In this document: positions 1 through 32,521 of the stretch, piece after piece
Layout: the number at the start of each line of letters is the position of its first letter
Numbering within the stretch: position 1 is the stretch's first letter
Origin: a virus
Virus genome (UHGV): UHGV-0123328
DNA length: 34,442 nt
Strand: one strand, 5' to 3'
Program-made: the position numbers and the translations under genes
Notes under the pieces: model-generated
Databases searched by the model: none
Told to the model about the DNA's origin: nothing
What the model saw: the letters and a program-made list of their open reading frames with translations, nothing else

Positions 1-1271
1 TGGACGCGCCGATTGGCTACATGGGTTCCTTCAAGAATCTGTGCGACAAGCGCGGCGATACCACCAGCTTCGATGAATACTGGAAGAAAGACTCCACCGC
101 CGAGCTGTACCACTTCATCGGTAAAGATATTGTTTACTTCCACAGCCTGTTCTGGCCTGCCATGCTGGAAGGCAGCAACTTCCGCAAGCCGTCCAACCTG
201 TTTGTTCATGGCTATGTGACGGTGAACGGCGCGAAGATGTCCAAGTCTCGCGGCACCTTTATTAAAGCCAGCACCTGGCTGAATCATTTTGACGCCGACA
301 GCCTGCGTTACTACTACACTGCGAAACTCTCTTCGCGCATTGATGATATCGATCTCAACCTGGAGGATTTCGTTCAGCGCGTGAATGCCGATATCGTGAA
401 CAAAGTGGTTAACCTGGCCTCCCGTAATGCAGGCTTTATCAACAAGCGTTTTGACGGCGTGCTGGCAAGCGAACTGGCTGACCCGCAACTGTACAAAACC
501 TTTACTGATGCCGCTGAAGTGATTGGCGAAGCATGGGAAAGCCGCGAATTTGGTAAAGCTATCCGTGAAATCATGGCATTGGCTGACCTGGCTAACCGCT
601 ATGTCGATGAACAGGCTCCGTGGGTGGTGGCGAAGCAGGAAGGACGCGATGCCGATCTGCAGGCGATTTGCTCTATGGGCATTAACCTGTTCCGCGTGCT
701 GATGACGTACCTGAAGCCGGTACTGCCGAAACTGACTGAACGTGCAGAAGCATTCCTGAATACAGAACTGACCTGGGATGGTATCCAGCAACCGCTGCTG
801 GGCCATAAAGTAAATCCGTTCAAGGCACTGTATAACCGCATCGATATGAAGCAGGTTGAAGCACTGGTGGAAGCATCCAAAGAAGAAGTGAAAGCCACAG
901 CCGCACCGGTAACTGGCCCACTGGCTGACGACCCGATTCAGGAAACTATCACCTTTGACGACTTCGCCAAAGTTGACCTGCGCGTGGCGCTGATTGAAAA
1001 CGCGGAGTTTGTTGAAGGTTCTGACAAACTGTTGCGCCTGACACTGGATCTCGGTGGTGAAAAGCGTAATGTCTTCTCAGGCATCCGTTCTGCTTATCCA
1101 GACCCACAGGCACTGATTGGTCGTCACACAATTATGGTGGCTAACCTGGCTCCGCGTAAGATGCGCTTCGGTATCTCTGAAGGCATGGTGATGGCTGCTG
1201 GCCCTGGCGGAAAAGATATCTTCCTGTTAAGCCCGGATGCTGGTGCTAAACCAGGCCACCAAGTTAAGTAA
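1..1271 (+). CDS. metG: Methionyl-tRNA synthetase, C-terminal portion (5' truncated by the window edge; reading frame begins at nt 3)
   Basis: Translation (…[19 protein letters not shown]…KMSKSRGTF…ending AKPGHQVK) matches the C-terminal region of enterobacterial MetG as I recall it, including the KMSKS class I synthetase motif and the C-terminal tRNA-binding domain. Uninterrupted ORF to the TAA at 1269-1271. Confidence 0.96.
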
Positions 1272-1291
1272 CTAAACAACCATTCTTCACA

Positions 1292-1318
1292 ATGCCCGGC
1301 AACACGCTGGGCATTTTC
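1292..1318 (+). terminator. Rho-independent terminator of metG
   Basis: Inverted repeat ATGCCCGGC-aacac-GCTGGGCAT followed by TTTTCAT, about 20 nt after the metG stop. Confidence 0.6.
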
Positions 1319-1432
1319 ATATAGACACAATCCCTCCTGATTTACACAAGCCCTAAAACAATTTGTTTTCTACCTTTTGTTGATTGAGATAATAAGCCAC
1401 ATAAGAAAATAAATTGTTTCGGAGTGGTTGAA

Positions 1433-1732
1433 ATGTTGAACATTACCCAAGCCTACCAGGTGGCATTGATCAGTTCATCTCATACATCAGAGGAAGATGC
1501 TCGCCGATTCATGATCGCAAGCAATGAGCTGGATTGGGTTTCGCAAATTGACGGCGGTTGTATTGTCCACGCCGGGTTACAGGATGATGTCTGGAAAGGC
1601 GACTTGCGTCGATATGGTATATCCGAAGGCGCAATTGCTAACATTCAGAAAGTACTTGATGTAGGCTTTGACTCTGTACATTTTGATTGTGGTGCGCCGA
1701 TCGTTGAAGGGCTTGAGTGCTGGTGTTGGTAG
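1433..1732 (+). CDS. Hypothetical protein (99 aa; ORF track starts at GTG 1424)
   Basis: ORF with GGAG 8 nt upstream of ATG 1433; preceded by two AAACA-N3-TGTTT-like palindromes (1356-1368, 1406-1420). No recognisable domain. Confidence 0.5.
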   Translation: MLNITQAYQVALISSSHTSEEDARRFMIASNELDWVSQIDGGCIVHAGLQDDVWKGDLRRYGISEGAIANIQKVLDVGFDSVHFDCGAPIVEGLECWCW

Positions 1733-1902
1733 AGTGTATAAGCGGATCAATGAGTTACGGAAACAGTTAATAATGAGGAGCTTGTAATAAGCTGTATACC
1801 CTAGAAAAGCTAGACTAGGGAATAAAATGACGTGAAACTGGGCGAGACAGTAAATAATTCCGAATGATAATTGAACAAATAACCCCTTGCTCGGAGCTTG
1901 GA

Positions 1903-3093
1903 ATGACTGATACCGCTTTTTCAAAATCGTTACAAAAAGAAGTCGATCCTGAGCAGTACTTGGCGCTAAAGAATTTAGATGACAGCTCGGTTCATGCTAT
2001 TGCCCGTGACGATATCATCTGCCCCATTTGCAAAGTTGGAGGTGGTTCGTTCGTTAGAGCCACTAGGAATGGTGGCTATCACAAGAAGGCGCATTTCAGA
2101 TTTACCGGTGAAGATGGTCAAGGCCATCATCCATCATGTGATTTCTATGGAGATAGACTAACATCTGAGGTGAAGCAGCACCTTGTCTCATTCACAAAAG
2201 ATCGAACAAAGTATTCGCAGGTAATACGAAAGCTGGTCTGTGCCGGCATACAGGAAGGGATATTTACTCAAGAAAAAATGTGGCAGATGAGGGAATGGTT
2301 CTTCAATAAGCGAAAGGATTCCACATTTGAAATATGGTTAGAAAGCGAGCATTTAGACTGGCTTTATTATATTAGTGGGTTACGTGATGCATATCTAGCA
2401 TGGACAACTCCTGATATTCTACCTTTCGCGCCCATTCAGGTTACTGTGCCTGGTTTTTCTTGGAAGCGTGCGATTGACAAAGAGGTGCTAAGAGTTCACA
2501 TCAAGACTCTCCAGCAATTGCGTGAAATTTCAGTCTCACATAGAGACATTGCTGTAATCTTAGAACACATAAACAATAATCGTGACCGCACAATTCTCGA
2601 TCCATCGCATTTGGAGGACGAGATAAGTAAGACCTATAAGCTTACTAGTTTTGTGATGGGCAATTACATTGAGTTTCAGACAAAAACGGTTAGCGACAGA
2701 GCATACGGGGAAGCTAAGTTTCTGGCATTTGCAGCACTTTTGTTGTTCGTGTCAGATTGGGACCTCAACATTGCTATTGGTAAGTTTTCTAAGATTGCCA
2801 GAGTGAAGGAGGTTGATGACATGCTGGCTGGTAATTTCATTGGTCTTAATCCTTACTTCCGATACGACCTGGCTAATGCAGTGAAGAGATTGCAGGATAA
2901 CTGGCCGATTGAATACCAAGAGTTGGAGCATTGGAATGTTGAGAAATCCATGCGTGACGCATATGAAAAGTGGCGTGCGACAGAGCCTGAATTCGCTCCA
3001 CCCCTATTGCCAGACTTGTATATTGCCAAACATGAGAAAGAAGTCGCACAAGACGAGCAAGTCAGGCAGTGGATTGAGAACGGGGATGTTTGA
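1903..3093 (+). CDS. Hypothetical protein with N-terminal Cys/His cluster (396 aa from ATG 1903; alternative ATG 1864 gives 409 aa)
   Basis: Long ORF in a roughly 42% GC region; GGAG 6 nt upstream of ATG 1903. N-terminal CPIC…H…HHPSC arrangement suggests a zinc-binding ribbon. No other motif recognised. Confidence 0.6.
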   Translation: MTDTAFSKSLQKEVDPEQYLALKNLDDSSVHAIARDDIICPICKVGGGSFVRATRNGGYHKKAHFRFTGEDGQGHHPSCDFYGDRLTSEVKQHLVSFTKDRTKYSQVIRKLVCAGIQEGIFTQEKMWQMREWFFNKRKDSTFEIWLESEHLDWLYYISGLRDAYLAWTTPDILPFAPIQVTVPGFSWKRAIDKEVLRVHIKTLQQLREISVSHRDIAVILEHINNNRDRTILDPSHLEDEISKTYKLTSFVMGNYIEFQTKTVSDRAYGEAKFLAFAALLLFVSDWDLNIAIGKFSKIARVKEVDDMLAGNFIGLNPYFRYDLANAVKRLQDNWPIEYQELEHWNVEKSMRDAYEKWRATEPEFAPPLLPDLYIAKHEKEVAQDEQVRQWIENGDV

Positions 3094-3229
3094 GTGTAAT
3101 TAGCTTAATCAATCAGTTGATAATGGCGGTCACAATTTGATTCTTTTCTATAAGAATCCGTTGATCGCCACTACTCTTCTTCCATACCTGCAATCATACC
3201 CTTAAATATCAATAGGTTACTGTTGTTTA

Positions 3230-3990
3230 AGCCAATAAGAAAACAACTAAATAACAGATCAACGAAACATCAACGCTTTCACCCGATTTGGTCTAAAAAA
3301 TTGACGTTTTCACACATCACTGCTTATACCCGTAATTCTACACAGCAGACAGCGCCACAGCGTCCAATTTTCACCACAGACGACCCAACACACTACCAAC
3401 AAAAACACACGCTCAAAATCGCTCCCGTTGCGTTACACAACCATATAAACAACTTATTTTCAGGTATAACAAAACAACTAAATAACACATATGCCATTCC
3501 CCATAACAACCAACCTCTTTATGGCAGGCTACCGAAAAGACCCACCTCTTCTTCTCAGGCTATCGGACAACCAACCTAACTTTCACAGGCAATCCGAAAA
3601 CATTCATACGCGCAATACCCACGACACGCCATTACCCAAACAGCGAAGAAACACCAGAATCACTGAAACCCCAACGAAGCCTGTAACCGCAAGGTTTCTC
3701 TCAATCCCAAAAGACACGAAACATAACAATCACGGGAAACGCCATTACCCAATACACGAATAACTACAAAAGCCCTTCACGCACTCCAGACAAACAACTC
3801 AAACACAATAACGAAAGCAATCGCCCACCTGCCATTACTCCATACACGGAGAAGAACAATCACCAAAACGACGAGAACACCCCATAGAAGAACCACCGCA
3901 AAACGAACGAAACCACATACACCGACAGAGAGAACAACACGCCCAATTCACCAACAGAAATAGTCGCCGTATAGAACGTTCTGGAAGGGG
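3230..3990 (+). other. A+C-rich, G-depleted non-coding tract with three copies of a GCCATTAC(C/T)C-N-ATACACG motif
   Basis: Extreme strand compositional skew visible by eye. Motif copies at about 3626-3641, 3738-3758 and 3829-3849. Only low-complexity ORFs on the plus strand and none of 60 aa or more on the minus strand. Confidence 0.6.
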
Positions 3991-4174
3991 GTGAGCATTA
4001 ACGCCTATAGAGAGGTTGAGACAGATAAAACACGAAGAAAACACAACATGTATAGCGAAGAAGCAAGGTATGTATAAGTGGGGAGGGAAGGAGGGGTGTC
4101 GCCTCCTTTTTCGTATTTATTCAACTCCTGATTTTATCCCCCGTAACACCCCTACGGTCAGCCTTCGGTCCATA

Positions 4175-4309
4175 CAGGGAAAAGGCTGCATCCCGCTACA
4201 GAAACGGCTGGGTTGCCTTCGGGGAACGGCTGGGGATTTTCAGGGAAACGGTCGAGTTGCCTGTGTGGATTTCGGGAAAAGGCTCGATGCCGGTTCAGGA
4301 ACGGCGGCG
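4175..4309 (+). repeat. Iteron-like direct repeat array 1 (six copies of C(A/G)GGRAAMRGC at 21-32 bp spacing)
   Basis: Copies start at 4175, 4199, 4220, 4241, 4273 and 4296: cagggaaaaggctg, cagaaacggctgg, cggggaacggctgg, cagggaaacggtcg, cgggaaaaggctcg, caggaacggcggcg. Confidence 0.7.
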
Positions 4310-4622
4310 TACCGGTATAGCGAGAGGGAGAGTTGCGGCTACCCACCTGTAATGTGCGGGAAGAAGAGAGGCGCTCACGTGCAGGCGAACTTACTTACCG
4401 CTGGATTCCCTCTGAATGCCCAGCTACAGCGTAATTGTGCCAGACAGCCAACGGGTCACAATCGATTTCAGTAGGTTTTCGGGGAGATGATTATTCTGCC
4501 CACCAGCCACCTTCGGCCACTAAATCAGAATAATGTAAAAAGTGTACTCGGTACTGAACCTGAAAACTCACTGCCAAAACCACATTCACCGGAATAAAAT
4601 CCTTTTTCGCCTGTGCGTTATT

Positions 4623-4660
4623 GCGATAATAACACCAACGAGAAAACAAGTTGTTTAAGG
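4623..4660 (+). promoter_or_regulatory. Conserved promoter/operator-like module, copy 1 (GCGATAAT…AGAAAACAAGTTGTTTAAGG; palindrome 4644-4656)
   Basis: Nearly identical to the copies at 6760-6796 and 7245-7284. Palindrome AAACA-agt-TGTTT ends 12 nt before ATG 4669. Confidence 0.6.
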
Positions 4661-4668
4661 ATTGCTTT

Positions 4669-4998
4669 ATGTTTGCAAATATCGACATCAACCAAATCAA
4701 GAAATTAACTCAAAAAGAGTTTGATCAGTTTTATGAGTTAGAAGGTTGGTCTTCCACTCTGATCAATTCGCGGTGGGTGCTTGAGCTGATGACTCGTGAT
4801 GACGCACCTGCTTTGATGATTTGCGACATGGGTGAAGATGCTGACTTTATGGATATGAGCGAATTTTGTGTGGACACATACAACCGCAGCCAGAAGTACT
4901 ACTTCACATGCGATAGCGAAAATGACGTGATTTCTAAGGTCTATCTTCACCTCGTCCAGCATTGGGACGTTCAGGAGTTTCTTGAAGTATTCGAGTAA
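4669..4998 (+). CDS. Hypothetical small protein (109 aa; ORF track starts at TTG 4651)
   Basis: ORF with AAGGA Shine-Dalgarno 8 nt upstream of ATG 4669; conserved upstream module; stem-loop 5008-5026 downstream. Confidence 0.6.
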   Translation: MFANIDINQIKKLTQKEFDQFYELEGWSSTLINSRWVLELMTRDDAPALMICDMGEDADFMDMSEFCVDTYNRSQKYYFTCDSENDVISKVYLHLVQHWDVQEFLEVFE

Positions 4999-5007
4999 CC
5001 CCAACCA

Positions 5008-5034
5008 AAGCCAGCATTGCTGGCTTAATTTCTC
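5008..5034 (+). terminator. Stem-loop / putative terminator (AAGCCAGC-att-GCTGGCTT followed by a T-rich run)
   Basis: 8-bp perfect stem and T-rich tail, 10 nt after the stop at 4998. Confidence 0.5.
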
Positions 5035-5151
5035 TATAGCCGCAGGGAAGAACCTGCATATCGCTCATGCACCTGATCAATATGCTTTGTAGCCGTTTTC
5101 TTACTGGTATTATTTACGCCATTGAGAAAACAAGTTGTTTACGGAGTTGTG

Positions 5152-5463
5152 ATGAAAAAATCATTGGTTCTTGGTCTGGACAAAGACCAGAAGAGAAAAG
5201 AGAAGCCTGCACTGGTTGCTCAATTAACTTTGCTAGACATCGTTGCCAATGGAACCTCTATTCGTCTGTTCCGTGAAACAGCGGTGTCTTTCGATAAAAA
5301 CACCTTTACTCGTTATGTAATGAATGTTCGTCGCCAGCGTGGAAAAGGCTGGATGGCATTTCAAAGAATGTGGCCGGAACATCAGCTCGAACTGGCTTTG
5401 ATGGAAGTTAACCGCGTGGCCCAGCAAGAAATTCAGAGAGCATCAGTGATGGCAATAGCCTGA
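5152..5463 (+). CDS. Hypothetical small basic protein (103 aa; ORF track start 5122)
   Basis: ACGGAG Shine-Dalgarno 5 nt upstream of ATG 5152; AAACA-agt-TGTTT palindrome at 5128-5140; terminator downstream. Confidence 0.6.
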   Translation: MKKSLVLGLDKDQKRKEKPALVAQLTLLDIVANGTSIRLFRETAVSFDKNTFTRYVMNVRRQRGKGWMAFQRMWPEHQLELALMEVNRVAQQEIQRASVMAIA

Positions 5464-5497
5464 TAATGTGCAAGTGGTAATTAGTCGACAGTACGAC

Positions 5498-5527
5498 AGC
5501 CCCGCCATCCTTACGGGGCTTTTTTGT
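5498..5527 (+). terminator. Rho-independent terminator
   Basis: AGCCCCG-ccatcctta-CGGGGCT followed by TTTTTTG. Confidence 0.7.
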
Positions 5528-5589
5528 ATTGTAAGTACATACTTACGATCATAGAATAGAAAAATAACCAATACACTACGGAGAGTGAA

Positions 5590-5985
5590 ATGACCGTTAA
5601 ACGCGAAAAACTGACAGTTGATGTTTACTATGCCTCTGAAACCGCCGAAGGTAAGAATGTGGCAAAAATCACCGTTGTTACGTACAACACCGAAACTGGT
5701 GCCGAAGTCCAGGCCAGTACGATCGTGCGTAAAGGTGATGCCTCCGGCGGCGAGTACGCGACTCAATACCAGTCTATTTTCGATGCAACTGACCCGCTGC
5801 TGCTGAAAATCGAGAACTACTTCCGCCAGGTTGATGAAGAGGTGTTTGAACCAATGATGAATATGGTTAACACCGTATTCGCCTCCAACCTGAATACCAA
5901 CACTACCTGGATTGGTCAGTACGGCCTGCGCATTACCTCTGGCATTCCTGCCGACACCTTAATCCCTGAAAGCGTATTCGCTTAA
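5590..5985 (+). CDS. Hypothetical protein (131 aa)
   Basis: ORF with GGAG Shine-Dalgarno; preceded by the GTAAGTA-ca-TACTTAC palindrome (5531-5546); hairpin plus T-run downstream (5994-6024). Confidence 0.6.
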   Translation: MTVKREKLTVDVYYASETAEGKNVAKITVVTYNTETGAEVQASTIVRKGDASGGEYATQYQSIFDATDPLLLKIENYFRQVDEEVFEPMMNMVNTVFASNLNTNTTWIGQYGLRITSGIPADTLIPESVFA

Positions 5986-5993
5986 TCCTCTTT

Positions 5994-6024
5994 AAATGGC
6001 GCGCAAACCGCGCCATTTTATTAT
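5994..6024 (+). terminator. Rho-independent terminator
   Basis: AAATGGCGCG-caaac-CGCGCCATTT followed by TATTAT. Confidence 0.65.
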
Positions 6025-6102
6025 GCCCGATAACAATTTGTTTTCTGCCTTATCTGATTTGTGAAAATGATTTCACTGAAGCAACTTAATAAGGAAACCA
6101 TC

Positions 6103-6477
6103 ATGGGACTTGATATCTATATCGAGACACAGCCTAAAAACGATCTGAATAACGAGGCATCCAGAAAGCAGGTTGCTTACTTCCGTAAGTTCAATGCGCT
6201 CGTTGGGTGGATGGAGCGCAACGTAGGTGAAGTCGAAAATTGTGAGCTTTTAGAATTAACGATGAATGACATTTGTTTTCTGAAGGCTCATTTGATGCAC
6301 ATAAACGAAAGTAATTGCGAAGAGTACTTGCCTACCCGGGAAGGTTTTTTCTTCGGCAGTCAGGAGTACGATGAAGGTTACTGGCATGATGTGGGGCAGT
6401 TGAAAGAGCTTGTGGAAGATCTGATTAAGAACCACGACTTTCACAATAACAGACTGACCTTCTGCGCCTGGTGGTAA
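6103..6477 (+). CDS. Hypothetical protein (124 aa from ATG 6103; ORF track starts at GTG 6061, alternative ATG 6067)
   Basis: Strong TAAGGAAACC Shine-Dalgarno before ATG 6103; AACA-att-TGTTT palindrome at 6031-6043 upstream. Confidence 0.55.
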   Translation: MGLDIYIETQPKNDLNNEASRKQVAYFRKFNALVGWMERNVGEVENCELLELTMNDICFLKAHLMHINESNCEEYLPTREGFFFGSQEYDEGYWHDVGQLKELVEDLIKNHDFHNNRLTFCAWW

Positions 6478-6479
6478 AT

Positions 6480-6623
6480 ATGGGCGATTTCAAGAAACGC
6501 CTGAAGGAAAGAGCCGAGATGGTCAGAAAGCAAAACGCCTCTTCTGTCATCAGATACGCAAGGCAGTTTAGTCGCAACAACAAATCAGTTGAGGAAAAGA
6601 TCCTTAGCGTAATCGGGCGATAA
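6480..6623 (+). CDS. Possible small basic protein (47 aa), translationally coupled to the preceding gene
   Basis: ATG 6480 lies 2 nt after the upstream stop; Lys/Arg-rich ORF ending immediately before stem-loop 6627-6654. Not in the ORF track because it is under 60 aa. Confidence 0.3.
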   Translation: MGDFKKRLKERAEMVRKQNASSVIRYARQFSRNNKSVEEKILSVIGR

Positions 6624-6626
6624 TTA

Positions 6627-6654
6627 TTAAGACCACCAGCATTGGTGGTCTTAA
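6627..6654 (+). terminator. Stem-loop TTAAGACCACCA-gcat-TGGTGGTCTTAA (putative terminator or RNA processing/stability element)
   Basis: 12-bp perfect stem. A covarying twin occurs at 7098-7125. Confidence 0.5.
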
Positions 6655-6759
6655 ATGACTTTTAATAACCGAAGGTTAGTTTGAAACCTGGCTATCAACT
6701 TCCAGAACCTTTCTTGTGTATTCAGCCTGTATTAACTTCTTTTATGCCTTATCTACACT

Positions 6760-6796
6760 GCGATAATTACACCAACAAGAAAACAACATGTTTACG
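6760..6796 (+). promoter_or_regulatory. Conserved promoter/operator-like module, copy 2 (palindrome AAACA-aca-TGTTT at 6781-6793)
   Basis: GCGATAATTACACCAACAAGAAAACAACATGTTTACG; near-identical to copies at 4623-4660 and 7245-7284. Confidence 0.6.
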
Positions 6797-6812
6797 CAGT
6801 GAGGATATGCTC

Positions 6813-7094
6813 ATGACTGATTTCACCATTACCCCTAAAGCACAAAATGTATTTCTTGAATCATGGCTGGACTTGCCGGAAACAGAACAGCAAGAAATGG
6901 ATCATGTGGATTATGACGAGCAGGTAAGCACGCGATTCTTCCACTTTGAGGGCTGCGTTTACGACATTGCCGACTTCATGCGAGATGACCGCTTCCCTGA
7001 ATGGCACGCCAGTTATCCACTAAACGCCTTCGCCATGCTGATGATCCGTGTGGGTGATTCAGGGGATACCATCGACATCGGTCTGCTCCACTAA
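6813..7094 (+). CDS. Hypothetical small acidic protein (93 aa; ORF track start 6681)
   Basis: GAGGA Shine-Dalgarno 7 nt upstream of ATG 6813; conserved module upstream; stem-loop downstream. Confidence 0.55.
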   Translation: MTDFTITPKAQNVFLESWLDLPETEQQEMDHVDYDEQVSTRFFHFEGCVYDIADFMRDDRFPEWHASYPLNAFAMLMIRVGDSGDTIDIGLLH

Positions 7095-7097
7095 AGA

Positions 7098-7125
7098 TTA
7101 AGGCCACCAATGCTGGTGGCCTTAA
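7098..7125 (+). terminator. Stem-loop TTAAGGCCACCA-atgc-TGGTGGCCTTAA
   Basis: 12-bp perfect stem, compensatory to the 6627-6654 copy (A:T pair replaced by G:C). Confidence 0.5.
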
Positions 7126-7244
7126 ATGACCATCCTGTTTCCCGCAGGCTAAAAACACCAACCTCTTACCTCCAGGCAACCGACAAACCCACCTGTTCCC
7201 GTCCGGCTACCGCAACTTTCCACTTTGACGCCTTATTCGTACAA

Positions 7245-7284
7245 CGATAATTAACGCCAACAAGAAAACAATTTGTTATTTACG
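7245..7284 (+). promoter_or_regulatory. Conserved promoter/operator-like module, copy 3 (palindrome 7266-7278)
   Basis: ACGATAATTAACGCCAACAAGAAAACAATTTGTTATTTACG upstream of ATG 7299. Confidence 0.6.
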
Positions 7285-7298
7285 ATAAGGAATTAATC

Positions 7299-7781
7299 AT
7301 GAATTTTATCGCTACTGTAAACGCACCCGCACATGGCAATATCGCTGTAACGTTCTCTGACATTGAAAAACGAGTACTTGGTGCCTGGCGTCACAATGAG
7401 ACGGTAGAACTGTCAGAACAAGAAAAATGCATTATTGCACGCGACATCATTGGCAATCGTCGTTACTCGCGGGTATTTGAGAAAGCATATGTGGTAAATT
7501 CTGGGTTCGGAACGTTCGTCTTTCCGGTGCGCTCAGGGCGATTCTGCCAGTCCAAGCTGATTGAGTTCGCTACGCAGATTTCTGTCTGGATTAAAACTCA
7601 ATCGTCGTTCAAATTTTCCGACGATGAAGCAGTATCGCAGGGGATGCGGATCGCCAACAATGCGATTAAATGCAAAAACATTACGTATACCGCTGGCGTT
7701 GATACATGGAAACTGTTTTGCGCTAACTTTATGCTGAATGTATACGCAAGCAACCGCATCCACATCCTTGATGGCGTGTAA
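7299..7781 (+). CDS. Hypothetical protein (160 aa)
   Basis: TAAGGA Shine-Dalgarno 7 nt upstream; conserved module upstream; terminator 7790-7813 downstream. Confidence 0.65.
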   Translation: MNFIATVNAPAHGNIAVTFSDIEKRVLGAWRHNETVELSEQEKCIIARDIIGNRRYSRVFEKAYVVNSGFGTFVFPVRSGRFCQSKLIEFATQISVWIKTQSSFKFSDDEAVSQGMRIANNAIKCKNITYTAGVDTWKLFCANFMLNVYASNRIHILDGV

Positions 7782-7789
7782 CTGAGAAG

Positions 7790-7813
7790 AGGGCCAGAAA
7801 CGGCCCTTTCTCT
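7790..7813 (+). terminator. Rho-independent terminator
   Basis: AGGGCC-agaaac-GGCCCT followed by TTCTCT. Confidence 0.6.
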
Positions 7814-7830
7814 ATAGCCACCAGCTGCCG

Positions 7831-7910
7831 CAGGGAAATTTTCAGAAACGGCGAGGAACGTATTCATGAGCCGACGGGAAACGGCCAGGATTTTTTCGGG
7901 AAACGGCGGG
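7831..7910 (+). repeat. Iteron-like direct repeat array 2 (four copies; same family and orientation as 4175-4309)
   Basis: cagggaaatt, cagaaacggcgagg, cgggaaacggccagg, cgggaaacggcggg. Extended match GGATTTT(TT)C(A/G)GGGAAACGG shared with array 1. Confidence 0.7.
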
Positions 7911-8335
7911 GGTCGCCTTTATGTAGAAAACTGAGCGGGAGAAACCCGGAATCGCGCCAGAAATTGCGTAGCGGCGCTGGGGTATCGCTGGTGGGGGTTT
8001 CAGCCCCTGGGCCATCCAGATAGCTTTCGCTATGTGATTATGTGAATCCGTGGGTAAATCACTGTAAGCGCGTACACGTTGCCCAACGTGGCAATCATAT
8101 GCGAGCGGACACAGAACAACACAAAATGCCGATCCGCGCCGACAATTAAACGCGGATCACATAGCAAGAATAAAAGCCAATGATTAACCATACACCATAA
8201 CGCAATATAACGCGATTTAAGCGCGTTAATGCGCTAAGTAATGGGTATGTACTGGTAAGGATATAAAAGCGCGTCTATGGCGTTATTTTGGCGCTTATTT
8301 TTATGTTGTTGGAGTGAGTTAAAGACAATAAAAAA

Positions 8336-8401
8336 GCGCCATCATTGGCGCGTTATGGTGGGAGTATTGGAAACGAAAAAAGCGCCCACAGTGGGCGCTC
8401 G
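8336..8401. terminator. Pair of GC-rich hairpins (GCGCCA-tcat-TGGCGC and AGCGCCCA-ca-TGGGCGCT) flanked by A and T runs; likely bidirectional terminators
   Basis: Perfect stems with AAAAAA 5' and, for the second, TTTTATTT 3'. Same family as the hairpin at 8653-8669. Confidence 0.55.
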
Positions 8402-8404
8402 ATT

Positions 8405-8635
8405 TTATTTATGTAAACTGATTTCAAATCCCATTTCTACAAACGCTTTTAACATTAAAAATATATCAGCGTCATTCACGTCTGCTTTTTTTCGCTCCTG
8501 GTCGCTCAATAAGTCAATTTTGCGCGTCGTTTCATCGATAAACTCGACTGCGCGCCCAGCGTAACCAGCGATCCCAGCGATGCGATTAACAAAATATTCA
8601 TTGCGCACGTTAACGCCAGCGATAAGAATAAACAT
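8405..8635 (-). CDS. Hypothetical small protein (76 aa)
   Basis: AAGGAG Shine-Dalgarno 6 nt upstream of the ATG; bracketed by GC-rich hairpins. Confidence 0.5.
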   Translation of the reverse strand: MFILIAGVNVRNEYFVNRIAGIAGYAGRAVEFIDETTRKIDLLSDQERKKADVNDADIFLMLKAFVEMGFEISLHK

Positions 8636-8682
8636 GATTAAGCTCCTTAAAAGCGCCCATAGTGGGCGCCAGATTCCATTAA

Positions 8683-9333
8683 TTACGCTTTGAAAGCATC
8701 AGCCAGATAGTTATAGAAATCATTTTTAATAAAGCGATATTGCTGAGTGCCAGCTTTGGCGCTCCCAGCTCCTTTGACTTTTTCAACAAGTCCCAGACGT
8801 TCGCAAAGATTGATAAGCTGGTTGGCTTGAGTGTATCCTGCGTCTAATTTTATTTCGTTGGCTTTTTTCGCTTCATTCATTAAATCGAAAACAGCGCCAT
8901 TTGTGAACGTCTCGATCTCGTCGTTAATCATATCGATTAATGCGAATACACGAGATCCGGACATATCAGCGACGGAATAAACACACTTTCCAGCTTTAAT
9001 GGATTTAACCAGATAAACCAGTTTTTCCAGAGAATAACTGTTAGTCATTGCATCACGGAAAAAAACTTCTGGCGCTTGTTTGCTTGCTTTGATCGCATAG
9101 TAGAAAACAGAGCATAATTTTTCGTCTTCTACAGCGTTTACAACGTTGTTGATGAAGTAAGCAAGTTTAGTGGTCGCAGCTTGCATATTTGCTTTGTCTG
9201 CTTTAGTGTGCGTACCATTTTTATAATGTTCGTTATATGTTTGAGTTGCCAGATCTGCTTTTTCGCGCAGTTCATCGGATACAATGGAAGCAGCTTCAAT
9301 GATGGATTTTTTAGAAATGATAATGTTAGTCAT
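8683..9333 (-). CDS. Hypothetical protein (216 aa), AT-rich moron-like gene
   Basis: Clean ORF of about 40% GC with its own upstream intergenic region (9334-9570); hairpin 8653-8669 immediately downstream. Confidence 0.6.
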   Translation of the reverse strand: MTNIIISKKSIIEAASIVSDELREKADLATQTYNEHYKNGTHTKADKANMQAATTKLAYFINNVVNAVEDEKLCSVFYYAIKASKQAPEVFFRDAMTNSYSLEKLVYLVKSIKAGKCVYSVADMSGSRVFALIDMINDEIETFTNGAVFDLMNEAKKANEIKLDAGYTQANQLINLCERLGLVEKVKGAGSAKAGTQQYRFIKNDFYNYLADAFKA

Positions 9334-9614: not shown

Positions 9615-10136
9615 TTAAAACGGAAGGATTCGTTCAACCCAATCGAAGAAAATAAGAATTTTTCTGCCGTCTTTCAACTTAAGTGTGACTAGGCAGGCAT
9701 CAACGCCATCTGACGTTCCCTCAATTTCGCGGCCGTCTGCCATGTAGACCCTTATAGATTGGCCGTTTTGATAAGCCTTGCGACATATCTTAAAAAAATC
9801 ACGACGTGATGGCTGGTTGTCTACATAGTCAGGGTGTATTGTTAGTCTCCCTTTGAAATCGTAATCAATGCCATCAATTACGCCTGATTCAATTGTGCTA
9901 ATGCGCTCAAGTGGGAGCCTTATACGATTTTCTTTGTCAAATGGAGTTGGACAAAGGTCAACTTTGTTACGAGATGACATGAGACCATAAACGTACATGC
10001 AAAACACTTGGCCGTCTTCGAGAGTGACTCTTACAGGAAATTTAGCCCCCCGCCAGAAGAGCAAGGTGCGTTCAGCATGTTCGTAGTCTCGCGGCCATAC
10101 TTCAGCCGGTATGCCGTAGGTGATGTCTTTAACCAT
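9615..10136 (-). CDS. Hypothetical protein (173 aa) with an internally repeated (R)VxLxDG motif
   Basis: ORF with its own terminator. Motifs VRVTLEDGQ, IRVYMADGR and VTLKLKDGR suggest repeated small beta-rich units. Confidence 0.6.
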   Translation of the reverse strand: MVKDITYGIPAEVWPRDYEHAERTLLFWRGAKFPVRVTLEDGQVFCMYVYGLMSSRNKVDLCPTPFDKENRIRLPLERISTIESGVIDGIDYDFKGRLTIHPDYVDNQPSRRDFFKICRKAYQNGQSIRVYMADGREIEGTSDGVDACLVTLKLKDGRKILIFFDWVERILPF

Positions 10137-12059: not shown

Positions 12060-12338
12060 TTACGGCAACCTGCTCAGTATTTCCTCTAAATCTTTTTTTG
12101 TCATATTGGAGTTTTCATAGATGCGCATGATTTTCTCACGCGTCTTAGCGGAAACCCCAACAGCAGATGTGACTTTGTCAAATTCAGCCATAGTCATCGT
12201 CTCCAGAATGGCATTGATAACTTCAGCCTTAGACATCTTGATTTTTTTCTCTTTGAGTTTTATTTGAAATTTTCCAAGTTTTTCATTGGCCTTATCAGAC
12301 AATGCCACTTGGCAATAAGTTGTTTTCTTTTCGCTCAT
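12060..12338 (-). CDS. Hypothetical small protein (92 aa), Lys/Glu-rich
   Basis: ORF starting 3 nt after the helicase stop (translational coupling). Confidence 0.55.
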   Translation of the reverse strand: MSEKKTTYCQVALSDKANEKLGKFQIKLKEKKIKMSKAEVINAILETMTMAEFDKVTSAVGVSAKTREKIMRIYENSNMTKKDLEEILSRLP

Positions 12339-13900: not shown

Positions 13901-13982
13901 AAACCTCTTTCCTTAGTGCCTTTTGTATGTTATTTGGCTATTATAATAAGTAAGTGATTACTTAGTGGATTGTAGCAATAAA

Positions 13983-14663
13983 ATGGATGTAAAAATCACG
14001 ATTTTGCAGGTTGATGTTGCCAACCTTCGCCCGAATACCTGGAACACCAATTCGGTTGGTGCGCAGAATTTTGAAAAACTGAAAGGTTCTATCGAAAAAT
14101 TGGGCTTTTTTAAGCCAATTTTGGCTCGTGAACTTGAAGATGGATTTTTTGAAATCCTCGGCGGCGAACATCGCTGGCGTGCTGCTATTGAGCAAGGAAT
14201 TTCAACGGTTCCGGTGCTTTCTGTGGGCAAAATTAGCGATGTCGTAGCTAAACAGATGTCACTGGTGGACAACGAGCGATACGGTGAAGACGACCAAATC
14301 GCATTGCAACGCTTCATTGAAGAAATTCAGTCAGAACTTGACTATCAACTGTCTGAAATCGCCCCGTATGACGACGAAATCTCGATGGTTTTAGCAAAAG
14401 AGGCGGCAATCGACCTTGAAGCACTGGAGGCGTTGTCTCGTGGTAGTGATGAGCCTGTCGATACCGACAAACGAGAGAAAACCGAACGTGTCGGTGCGGA
14501 ACATCAGACCATGCGCTTCAAAGTAACTTTCGATGCGTCAGATCGCGTTGCAGAAACCATAAAAAACATCATCAAAGACCAGGCAATTAATACTGGCAAT
14601 GAAATGGAAAACGCTGGTGAGGCTCTGGTGTGGCTGGTCGACTACTACAAGGAGCGTATGTAA
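13983..14663 (+). CDS. ParB/Srx N-terminal-domain protein 1 (227 aa from ATG 13983; ORF track starts at GTG 13965)
   Basis: ParB-like N-terminal signature region (…FEILGGEHRWRAAIEQGISTVPV…); acidic C-terminal half. Confidence 0.65.
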   Translation: MDVKITILQVDVANLRPNTWNTNSVGAQNFEKLKGSIEKLGFFKPILARELEDGFFEILGGEHRWRAAIEQGISTVPVLSVGKISDVVAKQMSLVDNERYGEDDQIALQRFIEEIQSELDYQLSEIAPYDDEISMVLAKEAAIDLEALEALSRGSDEPVDTDKREKTERVGAEHQTMRFKVTFDASDRVAETIKNIIKDQAINTGNEMENAGEALVWLVDYYKERM

Positions 14664-15331
14664 TGACCAAAAAGTTTGAAATCGTATATCGCGACCCGGC
14701 AGATCTTATTCCCTATGAGATGAATGCCAAAAAGCATGATGAACAGCAGATCCGAGATCTGGCCGCAGCCATTAAAAAGCGCGGATTTGACCAGCCAATT
14801 ACGGTCGATAAGAACGACGTAATTATTACTGGCCACGGCCGCCGTGAGGCTGCAATTTTTGCTGGACTTGAGCGCGTACCGGTTATTGTTCGCGATGATC
14901 TCAGTGATGACGAGGTTCGTGCGAAGCGCCTTGAAGATAACCGACTTGCCAGCATTGATTACGATGCAATTAAGCTACAGAAAGAGCTTGAGTCGCTTGT
15001 TCTGGACGATATCGAGGTTTTCGGCTTCGAAGAGCGTGAGTTGAATGTTCTCGTTGGCAGTATGACAGAAGAAATGGACACCGACTCGCTAGTTATCGAT
15101 CTTGGCGAAGAAACTAAACGACAGAAGGATGAACACACCGAGATCAGTCGTGAAGTTGCAGCGGAAGAAGTACGTGTTGTCGACGTATTGGGCTTTAAAA
15201 CGCTCCCTGCTGGCTCTGCCATTGTTGTTGGTGATTTGCTTGCCCATATGGAAGAAATGACGGGAGAAAGCGGGGTAGACGCATTTGTGGCATATGCGGA
15301 GAAGATCTCTTCCGGGGAGATGGCTGCATGA
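14663..15331 (+). CDS. ParB/Srx N-terminal-domain protein 2 (222 aa; ORF track start 14630)
   Basis: …ITGHGRREAAIFAGLERVPVIV… ParB-like motif. ATG overlaps the upstream stop (TAATG), with AAGGAG Shine-Dalgarno. Confidence 0.65.
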   Translation: MTKKFEIVYRDPADLIPYEMNAKKHDEQQIRDLAAAIKKRGFDQPITVDKNDVIITGHGRREAAIFAGLERVPVIVRDDLSDDEVRAKRLEDNRLASIDYDAIKLQKELESLVLDDIEVFGFEERELNVLVGSMTEEMDTDSLVIDLGEETKRQKDEHTEISREVAAEEVRVVDVLGFKTLPAGSAIVVGDLLAHMEEMTGESGVDAFVAYAEKISSGEMAA

Positions 15332-15993
15332 GCAAATACATCATCAACGTATCGTTTCAGACACGCGTAAATAAAACCACGCGCACGTTGGAAATCGCTG
15401 AGTCGTTCGGGCTTGGCCTGGACGAAAAAGAGTGGACGCTTTACGACAATCTGGAGCTGGAAGTGAAGCAGGGCGATGTGGTGTACATCACCGGCCAATC
15501 CGGTTCCGGCAAATCCGTTGTGCTGCGCGAGTTGCAACGACAGATGAAGGATGAAGGGCTGTCTGTAGCCTCCATCGATGATTTTACCTTCGATAATGAG
15601 GTTAACGTCATCGATCAGTTGGGCAAAACGACCAGTGATGCGCTTGGGTTGTTATCTATGGCTGGTCTGAACGATGCATATCTGTTTGTTCGCAAGCCTT
15701 CTGAAATGTCAGACGGCCAGAAATATCGTCTCAAGATTGCCAAACTGATTGAGTCAGGCGCTAAAGTATGGGCTGCTGACGAGTTCGGCGCTGTTCTCGA
15801 CCGTGTAACCGCTCAGGTTGTGGCGTCTAACCTCCAGCGTGCCGCTCGAAAGGTTGGTGCGACGGTAATGGTGGCGACGACTCACGAAGACCTGAAGAAC
15901 GCGCTGCGCCCTGATATGCAGATCACCAAGCACTACAAAGAACGCGTGAAGGTGGAATATCACAATGGTAGTCATGATGAGGTCCATTCATGA
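15328..15993 (+). CDS. Minimal ABC-type ATPase (221 aa, nucleotide-binding domain only)
   Basis: Walker A GQSGSGKS, ABC signature-like MSDGQKYRL, Walker B VWAADEF and H-loop ATTHE in canonical order. Start overlaps the upstream stop (ATGA). Confidence 0.7.
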   Translation: MSKYIINVSFQTRVNKTTRTLEIAESFGLGLDEKEWTLYDNLELEVKQGDVVYITGQSGSGKSVVLRELQRQMKDEGLSVASIDDFTFDNEVNVIDQLGKTTSDALGLLSMAGLNDAYLFVRKPSEMSDGQKYRLKIAKLIESGAKVWAADEFGAVLDRVTAQVVASNLQRAARKVGATVMVATTHEDLKNALRPDMQITKHYKERVKVEYHNGSHDEVHS

Positions 15994-16607
15994 CGGACAT
16001 CATCATTAAACGCTACCGCCCTGAAGAGTTTCCGCGTCATCTGGACTTTCTGGAGCGAATGACTGTTACAAAGGGAACTGTAGAGGACTGGCACGCTCTT
16101 AAGTCGCTTCACTACAAAACAGACGGCAAACCTTTCGCGCCAACTTACTATCGCTGCGAACTTGATGACCGTCTGGTGGGCGTCGTGGTTATGGCTTACC
16201 CGAAACTACTGTTGGCACCTCGCCACCGCATGTTTCCTAAGTTGAAACCAACCACTAATACCACCGTGGCTAACCAGTACTGGGGTCGGTACGTGAATAA
16301 CAACTTTGCGGTGATCAGTCGCTCAGTTGTGGATACTCAGTATCGTGGCGTAGGCGTCTCTTATAGAATGATTAACCTGGTTAGCAGGATGCATGACCGG
16401 CCAATCATTGAGATCCAGTCCTCGATGAGCAAATACAATCCCTTCGCCATGAAAGCAGGGTTTAAGTTCATCCGCCCTGAGCGACCGAAGAGCTATGAAA
16501 GTGCACTGCGTGTATTCCAGCGCCATTTCCGTTCCGACCCGGGTGATAACGAGGCGATCGTCAAAGAGTTGTTCGCAATGAGCGAGTCTCGTCGTCGCCG
16601 TGCGTGA
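15990..16607 (+). CDS. GNAT-fold (acetyltransferase-like) protein (205 aa)
   Basis: Motif-A-like VVDTQYRGVGVSYRMINLV and motif-B-like NPFAMKAGFKFI. Start overlaps the upstream stop (ATGA). Confidence 0.5.
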   Translation: MTDIIIKRYRPEEFPRHLDFLERMTVTKGTVEDWHALKSLHYKTDGKPFAPTYYRCELDDRLVGVVVMAYPKLLLAPRHRMFPKLKPTTNTTVANQYWGRYVNNNFAVISRSVVDTQYRGVGVSYRMINLVSRMHDRPIIEIQSSMSKYNPFAMKAGFKFIRPERPKSYESALRVFQRHFRSDPGDNEAIVKELFAMSESRRRRA

Positions 16608-16884: not shown

Positions 16885-17151
16885 ATGACGTTAACCGATA
16901 AACAAAAGGACATCATCAAAACGCTCAATCTCGGTTATGAGCGAGGTCATCTACTTGATCTGGACGAATTGCTTGAAGTTTTGCCGTACAAGACAACAAA
17001 GCAAAGTATCCAGTTCTCAATTCGCGCTCTGATAAAAAAGGGGCTGGTGGAGAAAGGGCATACGCGCCAACGCAGTGACAATCGCTATCACCGCCGGACT
17101 CTTGGGTTAACCACTTTAGGTCGAGCCAAAGCGAAGTTACTGGTGATGTAA
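16885..17151 (+). CDS. Small basic protein with a possible helix-turn-helix (88 aa); candidate regulator
   Basis: ORF 10 nt after the previous gene; the segment TTKQSIQFSIRALIKKGLV resembles an HTH recognition helix. Sits immediately upstream of the large palindrome and packaging genes. Confidence 0.45.
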   Translation: MTLTDKQKDIIKTLNLGYERGHLLDLDELLEVLPYKTTKQSIQFSIRALIKKGLVEKGHTRQRSDNRYHRRTLGLTTLGRAKAKLLVM

Positions 17152-17175: not shown

Positions 17176-17230
17176 CCTGCTTCTGTATATATAAATAATA
17201 AGTAACTTATTAAATATATACGGAAGCAGG
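17176..17230. promoter_or_regulatory. Large imperfect palindrome (about 27-bp arms, CCTGCTTC…GGAAGCAGG) centred on AATAAGTAACTTATT
   Basis: Arms CCTGCTTCTGTATATATAAATAATAAGT and ACTTATTAAATATATACGGAAGCAGG. Located between the regulator-like gene and the small terminase gene. Confidence 0.6.
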
Positions 17231-17347
17231 CTTAGTAAGACATGCCCAGACCTAATTAAACACCCCAGAAAACAAGTTGGTTAGCAGATGCAGTAAACAA
17301 GTTGTTTTAGAGCGCATGGACGCGCTCTGTGTGTTTTAGAGGGATCT

Positions 17348-17980
17348 ATGACGGTCGAAAAAGACGAGGTAAAAACTCGCCTGACACCAGCGGAGTGGGC
17401 CGAAGCTGAAGCCAAATGGACGTCAGGCGAATATACACTCTCAAAGCTGGAGGAAGAGTACGGCATTCGTCGTGAAACACTCTCCAGACATTTCAAAAAG
17501 CGAGGATTAGAGAAAGGCGCGGACTCTGTTGGGAAGATGGTTCGTGAGTCTCTTAAATCTGACGCAGAGCTTCGCGCTAAAGCCCGTGCGGAAAAGATAG
17601 AAGAACGTCGTACACGTTATGACGGCTGGGCGTATGCGTTGGGGCAGATGGTGATGGTCGAAGTCACTACGGCCAAACGTGAGGGTAAGCCTTTAGGGGC
17701 GATTGAGGATTCTCTCAAGAGCTTACAGAGAGCCAGTAATACCCTTGCAAAATGCTTTGAAGTTTCGTCCAAAGCATTGGGCATGGATCATGCGGAAAAT
17801 GACGAGGAAGAAATTCCGAACCTGGTATTTGGTGAGCTTACGCCTTCCCAGGTGGCGAAATTACGTCAGGAAGACGACGAGCCTGAAATCATCGATGACG
17901 AATTGCTTGAGACGTTGGAAGAAGAAGCTCTAAGCGAATTTGATGCGACAGATGATGGAAGTGAAGGGGAGGACGAATAA
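17348..17980 (+). CDS. Terminase small subunit (210 aa), putative
   Basis: Immediately upstream of and overlapping the large terminase (TAATG). N-terminal helix-turn-helix-like segment (YTLSKLEEEYGIRRETLSRHFKKRG) and strongly acidic C-terminus. Confidence 0.6.
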   Translation: MTVEKDEVKTRLTPAEWAEAEAKWTSGEYTLSKLEEEYGIRRETLSRHFKKRGLEKGADSVGKMVRESLKSDAELRAKARAEKIEERRTRYDGWAYALGQMVMVEVTTAKREGKPLGAIEDSLKSLQRASNTLAKCFEVSSKALGMDHAENDEEEIPNLVFGELTPSQVAKLRQEDDEPEIIDDELLETLEEEALSEFDATDDGSEGEDE

Positions 17981-19236: not shown

Positions 19237-19262
19237 GTAAGTAATTATCTAAGGTTATTCAA

Positions 19263-22647: not shown

Positions 22648-22679
22648 TCAGTGAAGTAGATAAGTAATTATCTATGTTA

Positions 22680-25965: not shown

Positions 25966-26039
25966 CTCAATTAGTAAGTATATACTTACTATTAGCGCAA
26001 TGAATGCGTAGAATTAACGGAAAAAGGAGTTTTCCATCA

Positions 26040-32472: not shown

Positions 32473-32521
32473 GTATCTGGATAAGTAAGTACTAATTTAC
32501 TATCATTGTGGCGCTGACAGG

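Follow-up and report, generated by a model that had tools for sequence, protein, structure and literature searches.

The principle of a dispersed-operator regulon is already familiar. The C1 repressor of the plasmid prophage P1 reportedly acts on asymmetric 17-mer operators (ATTGCTCTAATAAATTT) scattered round the element, gp71 of L5 is said to block elongation at asymmetric stoperators, and phiC31 reportedly carries a 17-bp inverted repeat beside highly conserved early promoters. Among partition-linked regulators, KorB of RK2, a ParB-type helix-turn-helix (HTH) protein, uses a 13-bp 6-1-6 palindrome present in about 12 copies, omega of pSM19035 binds heptad arrays, and N15 (SopB) carries single palindromes near phage promoters. 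In the T4 PeSL arrangement, small open reading frames (ORFs) are said to lie between a conserved early promoter and a stem-loop terminator, in plastic regions of virulent myoviruses. Here we describe a module in which a 13-bp perfect dyad holds a fixed place within a conserved promoter-like sequence, repeated before scattered genes of the UHGV virus genome UHGV-0123328 (34,442 nucleotides; this whole stretch is called the window).

By analogy, the best reading of these modules is functional: a dispersed-operator regulon like those of P1 C1, L5, phiC31, KorA/KorB and omega, which by sequence is a member of none of them. With P1 C1 it would share one repressor (here putative) and many dispersed operators overlapping the promoters of separate lytic or accessory operons in a plasmid prophage; unlike the P1 site, the site here is a 13-bp perfect dyad, fixed in place within a conserved promoter. 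As in L5 and phiC31, tens of short candidate repressor sites lie in small intergenic gaps, oriented with transcription, whereas, unlike in those integrating actinophages, the site is fused to an extended -10 and in some cases present twice, 51 bp apart; there is no sequence relation. A partition-linked protein repressing many promoters via short repeated sites would recall omega, KorB/KorA and SopB-N15, the par link being putative here; the sites are single dyads, not heptad arrays as for omega. Judged on arrangement and indel break-points, promoter and stem-loop bracket small genes with gain and loss at the flanks, as in PeSL, but the PeSL arrangement has no operator dyad, and here the regulator site lies in the promoter of a temperate phage-plasmid. 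Particular to this system are the fixed operator-promoter fusion, the optional operator 51 bp away, the portable promoter-gene-terminator cassette and the possible partition link.

By sequence, the window is part of an SSU5-like phage-plasmid of the Cyrano type. Over 4400-7500 it shares 98.2% identity with Escherichia phage Cyrano (OV696614), which is the 108-kb plasmid pLF82 of E. coli LF82, and 93-98% identity with three further E. coli phage-plasmids; its terminase genes are ~80% identical to those of Salmonella phage SSU5 and Klebsiella phage-plasmids. A full-text literature search for four motif variants found none of them in the text of papers, and on SSU5 regulation the literature yielded nothing useful except the LF82/Cyrano transcriptome.

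Our preferred reading, which we put at a probability of about 0.6, is that the modules are sigma-70 promoters clamped by a dyad operator and form a dispersed regulon under one element-encoded dimeric protein. Each module would be a host sigma-70 extended -10 promoter (TGnGATAAT) with the dyad operator AAACAAnTTGTTT built into the initially transcribed region; in the two-operator form the centres lie 51 bp apart, about five helical turns. The phage-plasmid would encode a dimeric DNA-binding protein that occupies these sites and shuts the promoters, and about 16 scattered transcription units of the 108-kb element (small accessory genes, parA, the replicative helicase, cobT, nrdB and the terminase leader) would make up one regulon, off in the plasmid-prophage state and jointly released early in lytic growth.

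The dispersed dyad module

Within the window, AAACANNNTGTTT has five exact matches against 0.09 expected, a number reached in 0/100 shuffles, and for GAAAACAANNTGTT with at most one mismatch 0.37 strand-hits were expected and 15 found. The sequence-only reading of this DNA had reported a near-identical module repeated before small genes and in the leader of the small terminase gene (terS); motif searches and re-inspection of the sequence confirm this, and all of its coordinates hold. Full modules, comprising a -10-like hexamer, AGAAAACAAnTTGTTT and a Shine-Dalgarno sequence with ATG, occur at 4622-4656, 5105-5140, 6759-6793, 7246-7278 and 1385-1419. The features concerned, with putative functions, are:

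1356-1371 (+): upstream-type operator copy AAACAATTTGTTTTCT in the module of the 99-amino-acid gene, centre 51 bp from the downstream copy
1385-1393 (+): extended -10 TGAGATAAT, from sequence and position profile
1404-1419 (+): downstream operator AGAAAATAAATTGTTT, one mismatch, from motif search
1433-1732 (+): target gene, 99 amino acids, DUF5983 C-terminal domain, CYRAN_101 homologue
4622-4630 (+): extended -10 TGCGATAAT
4641-4656 (+): operator AGAAAACAAGTTGTTT, with the Shine-Dalgarno sequence AAGGA directly after it
4669-4998 (+): target gene, 109 amino acids, phrog_7645
5008-5026 (+): terminator-like hairpin at the end of the preceding cassette
5105-5113 (+): extended -10 TGGTATTAT
5125-5140 (+): operator AGAAAACAAGTTGTTT
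5152-5463 (+): target gene, 103 amino acids, phrog_5125
6031-6046 (+): upstream-type operator TAACAATTTGTTTTCT, geometry as for the 1356 copy, downstream partner decayed
6060-6068 (+): extended -10 TGTGAAAAT
6103-6477 (+): target gene, 124 amino acids, phrog_7971
6627-6654 (+): terminator hairpin, near-identical to 7098-7125
6759-6767 (+): extended -10 TGCGATAAT
6778-6793 (+): operator AGAAAACAACATGTTT
6807-7094 (+): target gene, 95 amino acids, phrog_1845
7098-7125 (unstranded): terminator hairpin, cassette boundary
7246-7251 (+): -10 hexamer GATAAT without TG extension
7263-7278 (+): operator AGAAAACAATTTGTTA
7299-7781 (+): target gene, 160 amino acids, phrog_1641
17267-17282 (+): terS-leader operator a AGAAAACAAGTTGGTT, with a weak -10-like CCTAAT before it
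17292-17307 (+): terS-leader operator b AGTAAACAAGTTGTTT, 25 bp from operator a
17310-17337 (+): GC hairpin GAGCGC-N6-GCGCTC and U-rich run, between operator b and the terS start
17348-17980 (+): small terminase gene (target)

Two weak extra matches, 3448-3461(-) and 12314-12327(-), fall within genes and probably reflect chance.

For motif counts the whole Cyrano genome was assembled (87% coding, 13% non-coding). AAACAA-N-TTGTTT is by far its commonest 6-1-6 palindrome, with nine perfect copies, all non-coding (9/9). Copies with at most one mismatch number 18, and 17/18 are intergenic once two annotated starts are corrected, so the motif is not equally frequent in coding DNA. Two copies had been scored as coding because the public record (OV696614) starts CYRAN_105 and CYRAN_110 too far upstream. 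These annotated starts read through the module (window 4651-4668 and 6681-6806), and translation likely begins instead at the ATG codons of 4669 and 6807/6813, which have Shine-Dalgarno sequences; the module thereby corrects public annotation of gene starts. Behind the Cyrano copies lie terS (two copies), parA, the DnaB-like helicase gene, cobT, CYRAN_58, nrdB and tciA, together with CYRAN_87, 93, 101 (two copies), 105, 106, 108, 110 and 111.

Alignment of 93 non-redundant instances (Cyrano, SSU5, the window and 45 SSU5-like IMG/VR loci) gives a consensus unit of gCCTT(t/a)t, ~12 nt, TGnGATAAT, 10-11 nt (AACACCAACA), AGAAAACAAnTTGTTT(A), Shine-Dalgarno sequence and ATG. The module is roughly 40-65 bp long, and its palindrome is a 13-bp, perfect 6-1-6 dyad; a conserved GCCTT lies ~20 nt upstream of the extended -10, with little or no -35. 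Among 61 non-redundant forward modules used for position statistics, the last T of the hexamer (= -7) is present in 55, an xAxxxT hexamer falls within a few bases of register in 48 and the TG extension occurs in 24. All point to the downstream gene, and in these 61 the palindrome-ATG distance is 8-42 nt (median 19).

Sequences with the character of sigma-70 extended -10 elements are found at 4622 and 6759 (TGCGATAAT), 1385 (TGAGATAAT), 5105 (TGGTATTAT) and 6060 (TGTGAAAAT), the exceptions being the 7246 module, which has no TG, and the terS leader, which has no good hexamer. An earlier claim that a GATAAT hexamer precedes every copy stands for four modules and falls at 5105 (TATTAT) and in the terS leader (CCTAAT only). 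The companion claim, that in each case the palindrome ends 10-25 nt before a Shine-Dalgarno sequence and start codon, needs similar trimming: it does not extend to 1356-1368 and 6031-6043, which are upstream-type copies before the extended -10 (26 bp from centre to hexamer start), and it is wrong for terS, where the copies stand 66 and 41 nt upstream of the ATG, with a terminator-like hairpin after them.

A generic -35/-10 promoter scan of the window did not pick the module sites, because they have no -35. The 8-42 nt between palindrome and ATG leave no space for a promoter, and we therefore infer promoter activity in the module and a transcript that starts at or before the palindrome. Each window module comes after the terminator-like hairpin of the previous gene (5008-5026, 6627-6654, 7098-7125 and others); each cassette thus needs its own promoter, for which the module is the only conserved candidate.

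In the two-operator subset, a second palindrome lies upstream in inverted extended orientation (AAACAAnTTGTTTTCT), over the -35 region. Neighbouring palindromes are set at discrete distances, 51 bp in 16 independent cases and, terS leaders included, 25 bp in six. With GATAAT set at -12 to -7, the downstream core would occupy ~+8 to +20 and the upstream copy ~-44 to -32. Dyad symmetry and a place within the predicted RNA polymerase footprint, as expected of a repressor operator, are both seen.

Promoter, operator or RNA leader

Normalised counts per Cyrano gene are available for an uninduced LF82 culture (S1 table of PMC9928086; background median 9.8). In that table the first genes behind palindrome modules have a median of 7.45 counts (CYRAN_101 7.5, 105 12.8, 106 12.2, 108 5.7, 110 6.7 and terS 7.1), and only the parA operon (50, 89 and 55), the helicase gene (21) and CYRAN_111 (25.5) stand above background. 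Silence at near-consensus extended -10 promoters argues for repression, though dependence on an activator would look no different.

It is improbable, on balance, that the palindrome is instead an activator site or phage-specific promoter element, with modules that fire only in the presence of a lytic-phase protein (CYRAN_123 or CYRAN_37) and genes that are silent in the lysogen because this activator is absent. Such a scheme would suit the many core-gene modules with a weak -10 and no -35, and the background level in the lysogen of the targets and of CYRAN_123 (7.8) and CYRAN_37 (6.4) alike. It would also suit the winged-helix model of CYRAN_123, whose recognition helix is invariant and whose gene abuts the two terS-leader sites, and the upstream copy, which is centred near -38 and close to class II activator positions. 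Most copies, however, lie only downstream of the -10 (~+8 to +20), a placement typical for repressors and rare for activators. Accessory-gene modules, moreover, have a near-consensus extended -10, for which no activator is expected, and the short interval from palindrome to start codon has no room for another promoter.

Several observations weigh against promoters clamped by a repressor. The parA operon has the palindrome yet is expressed at 5-9 times background, and background RNA in the lysogen is equally compatible with an activator-dependent promoter. Many core-gene modules have poor -10 hexamers (CCTAAT, GGCTAT, AGCAAT) and may not fire alone, or may need an extra factor. The left flank AAGAAAA is asymmetric and survives without the dyad in the Pectobacterium plasmid Drgb1; the motif is therefore partly promoter or leader, not symmetric operator.

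The sequence-only reading had proposed either a single dimeric regulator or an RNA-level element. The first half fits a dyad 13-mer fixed relative to the -10, its genome-wide, exclusively intergenic spread, family conservation and silent targets in the lysogen; the second half is not supported. As RNA, the palindrome could form only a 4-5-bp A-U stem. Five of the six leaders folded, those of the small genes, are no more stable than dinucleotide shuffles (z -0.6 to +1.1), and Rfam gave 0 matches at the gathering threshold over the whole window. We accordingly rejected an RNA element. Upstream copies precede the predicted start, behind terminators, and so would not be transcribed with the gene. 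Perfect symmetry, two fixed positions around the -10 and exclusion from coding DNA together speak for recognition of duplex DNA by a dimeric protein.

These results leave very little probability for an mRNA-leader element, that is, a 5'-untranslated-region (5'-UTR) operator for a translational repressor or RNA-stability factor such as the FljA-like protein of 9615-10136(-). Within the predicted 5'-UTR, the palindrome does lie 0-30 nt ahead of the Shine-Dalgarno sequence, the window encodes a full-length FljA homologue and the AAGAAAA left flank is strand-specific. The hairpin and Rfam results speak against such an element, as do the copies near -38; perfect dyad symmetry typifies sites in duplex DNA, and the distance to the ATG varies over 8-42 nt. 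The FljA homologue itself (PF03614, E = 2e-79) is kept in SSU5 and pMT1 and absent from Drgb1. FljA is the Salmonella phase-1 flagellin repressor and acts on the fliC 5'-UTR; the homologue is probably a host-directed moron and, going by its sequence, may let the phage-plasmid shut off host flagellin.

The terS leader (90 nt) folds with z = -2.75 and is the only well-folding leader because of a separate GC hairpin. This hairpin and its U-run (17310-17337), which separate the second palindrome from the terS Shine-Dalgarno sequence, suggest that a terminator or attenuator gates the late operon, in a manner recalling Q-type antitermination leaders.

As for described operators, we know of none that resembles the motif by inspection. 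The window has 0 matches with three or fewer mismatches to the P1 C1 17-mer, and likewise 0 to the LexA box (CTGT-N8-ACAG; 20-mer consensus), which differs from the motif in both sequence and spacing. The sequence-only reading had likewise not recognised the palindrome as a known host operator.

A second dispersed palindrome, (g)ATAAGTA-NN-TACTTAc(tTAT), occurs in the window at 5532-5545, 13947-13964, 19234-19251, 20741-20758, 22661-22674, 25975-25988 and 32482-32499, with a variant at 17199-17212. Cyrano has ~20 sites; TAAGTA-NN-TACTTA is perfect in five of them, and 5/5 are intergenic. They precede tail, fibre, holin, portal-region and many DNA-metabolism genes, interleaved with first-palindrome modules; analogous sites in Drgb1 read TACGTA. 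This is probably a second control motif, for middle/late genes or immunity. From 1 h to 6 h of a macrophage time course in the S1 table used above, palindrome-module genes changed little (+0.31 log2) and second-motif genes rose more (+1.05; Mann-Whitney p = 0.029), weak evidence for an earlier class (first palindrome) and a later class (second motif).

Candidate binding proteins

The leading candidate for the binder, with about one chance in three, is CYRAN_29, encoded outside the window directly after a type Ib ParA. This ParA has 222 amino acids and its ATPase domain starts at residue 2, and it therefore has no HTH or other DNA-binding N-domain. CYRAN_29 has 119 amino acids, of which the N-terminal third is basic and disordered, and a strand-helix-helix sequence pattern, making it a putative ParG-like partner of candidate ribbon-helix-helix fold. 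The pair shows the type Ib layout: a small Walker ParA that has no DNA-binding N-domain and, after it, a small putative centromere-binding partner. Because the small partner is the auto-repressor in type Ib partition systems, CYRAN_29 would see every other copy of the dyad. The palindrome, as a single dyad, is the best-conserved block of the parA promoter/leader across eight lineages, and CYRAN_29 is expressed in the lysogen (89 counts). A putative beta-strand (SRTMS) and helix (FTRSDVIRAAI) are invariant in homologues of 49-100% identity; 736/797 plasmid homologues are at least 90% identical, and their genus spread matches that of the module.

Other results speak against CYRAN_29. Its AlphaFold2 (AF2) model has a mean pLDDT (predicted local distance difference test) of 64, a Foldseek search returned nothing, and hhalign against ParG and omega found no sequence similarity to these partition-linked regulators. 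The NCBIfam aCcr1 match is sub-threshold (E = 2e-4), a half-site spacing of 7 bp leaves little room for two ribbon-helix-helix dimers, and there is one dyad in place of a repeat array. Other candidate DNA binders exist, namely CYRAN_123, 117, 37, 45 and the ParB-like pair.

In its fullest form, CYRAN_29 would be a par auto-repressor recruited as global silencer: the centromere-binding partner of a type Ib ParA would have been co-opted genome-wide, and the dyad would have spread on a portable 64-bp promoter cassette to ~15-25 early or accessory promoters. We regard this version as rather unlikely. We find it very unlikely that the dyads are dispersed partition (centromere-like) sites for ParA/CYRAN_29, as in the linear plasmid-prophage N15, with any effect on transcription secondary. 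The conservation of the parA promoter copy and the parallel genus distribution of CYRAN_29 and module fit such sites, as does the lack of a classical repeat array conserved beside the par genes, SSU5 being without Cyrano's ACAA/TTGT-rich stretch. Yet the copies are locked to the positions of -10 and start codon, a constraint not needed for partition, type Ib centromeres described so far are repeat arrays rather than single dyads, and pMT1 keeps four copies though this par system has been replaced. The ACAA/TTGT tetramers upstream of Cyrano parA (L002 29095-29275) form the genome's densest cluster, nine in 200 bp against a mean of two; as a centromere this array was rejected, being replaced by unrelated sequence in SSU5.

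Two of the other candidates are encoded in the window:

16885-17151 (+): 88-amino-acid MarR-like winged-helix protein, CYRAN_123
12060-12338 (-): 92-amino-acid ribbon-helix-helix-like protein, CYRAN_117, secondary candidate regulator

CYRAN_123 had been put forward earlier as a possible regulator. In favour of that suggestion, its winged-helix model has a pLDDT of 82 and Foldseek TM (template modelling) scores of 0.7-0.76 to MepR, MarR and ZitR, with an invariant recognition helix. Its 7.8 counts in the lysogen, however, are background while the targets are silent, and it is therefore not the first choice as a prophage-state repressor; a lytic-phase role would suit it better than prophage silencing. 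CYRAN_37, small and winged-helix-like, has a similar pattern and is also silent (6.4 counts). CYRAN_117 is expressed but ranks only as a secondary candidate: the strand with which it would read DNA is not the same in Cyrano as in SSU5, despite an identical motif.

CYRAN_45, an expressed Xre-type repressor encoded next to the integrase gene, was downgraded because its own control region has a different conserved palindrome, GGTAAGTGCTTACY. In the divergent CYRAN_45/46 control region (Cyrano L002 42600-42800), GGTAAGTGCTTACY and promoter-like blocks are conserved in five lineages, and the second-palindrome half-site GTAAGT recurs there with a spacer 4 bp shorter. SSU5 is without the whole CYRAN_40-46 block (integrase and repressor), a loss that may explain why it has been described as virulent; because of that description, the absence of CYRAN_45 from SSU5 is not decisive.

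The window runs from the end of the methionyl-tRNA synthetase gene through the small-gene block, a divergent regulatory/helicase region and a ParB-like/ATPase operon to the terminase, head and tail genes. The operon at 13965-16607, immediately 5' of the winged-helix gene and terS, encodes two ParB/Srx N-domain proteins and two ABC-type ATPases and is kept even in Drgb1. Its ParB/Srx proteins are further candidate binders of either palindrome. At the other end, 21-1271 is the 3' part of a methionyl-tRNA synthetase gene carried on the phage-plasmid (CYRAN_100), absent from SSU5 and Drgb1.

Conservation and cassette turnover

In SSU5 the motif is present at orthologous sites (terS twice, parA, helicase, cobT and nrdB) and before many small genes absent from Cyrano; 1.6 and 2.0 strand-hits were expected, and 11 and 27 were found. 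All IMG/VR loci bearing multiple copies are SSU5-like; single matches elsewhere, in AT-rich unrelated contigs, look like chance. A 70-bp two-operator module matches 884 PLSDB plasmids (Klebsiella, Escherichia, Enterobacter, Salmonella, Citrobacter, Shigella). Y. pestis pMT1, which partly retains the backbone, keeps four copies before unrelated or orthologous genes, and because these four backbone copies survive, phylogenetic profiling with pMT1 is uninformative.

Drgb1 is more distant (median protein identity 52%). It keeps the promoter half (AATwA..ATCAaTAAGAAAA; also written AATwA..ATAAGAAAA) before several genes including parA, and the dispersed dyad was not found in it; AAACAA-type half-sites occur only at parA, with different spacing, and, everted, in the terS leader. 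The operator is thus a layer separable from the promoter. Too many proteins differ in Drgb1 for profiling to name the binder. The Drgb1 annotation (L130 10310-10531, 16963-18942) includes an Hfq gene just 5' of the helicase gene and colicin-like genes.

Comparison of window 1-9000 with PhiR41_1 and CMS-2020a located cassette break-points. PhiR41_1 has an extra 370-bp cassette with a junction within the palindrome at window 4641-4648. The cassette 6659-7096 is absent from both relatives, the junction lying within the twin terminators 6627-6654 / 7098-7125. Indels thus break in modules and terminators, and these conserved flanks double as recombination joints; under the repressor-operator reading, modules and look-alike terminators would serve in this way for cassette gain and loss. 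The stretch 1732-3105, with a 409-amino-acid ORF (1864-3093), is missing in PhiR41_1 and CMS-2020a, which have 12 nt in its place.

These joints raise the question whether the similarity is a recombination footprint only, cassettes having been copied with their flanks and with no regulatory protein partner. Indels between close relatives do break in modules and look-alike terminators, and modules before unrelated genes are near-identical over ~40 nt. This explanation is nevertheless highly improbable: in lineages only ~50-80% identical elsewhere, conservation of the 13-mer far exceeds that of the remaining module, the 13-mer is kept at old orthologous sites (parA, helicase, nrdB, terS) and its copies are strictly kept out of coding DNA.

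SSU5-like phage-plasmids are among the commonest large plasmids in Klebsiella, E. coli, Enterobacter and Salmonella (~800-900 PLSDB records). The family takes in S. Typhi pHCM2-type plasmids and part of Y. pestis pMT1, and resistance genes are also carried. It is thus large and clinically relevant; its control circuit is undescribed, and quiescence and the lytic switch essentially so. A recognisable promoter-operator module is a handle for finding the regulator, and through it the early/accessory regulon becomes definable by sequence alone in any family member. It would also explain how new small genes, probably for host takeover or anti-defence, are plugged into the control circuit. Were the partition partner the silencer, one protein would read both plasmid partition and the lysis-lysogeny state, and new genes would come under regulation on capture between module and terminator.

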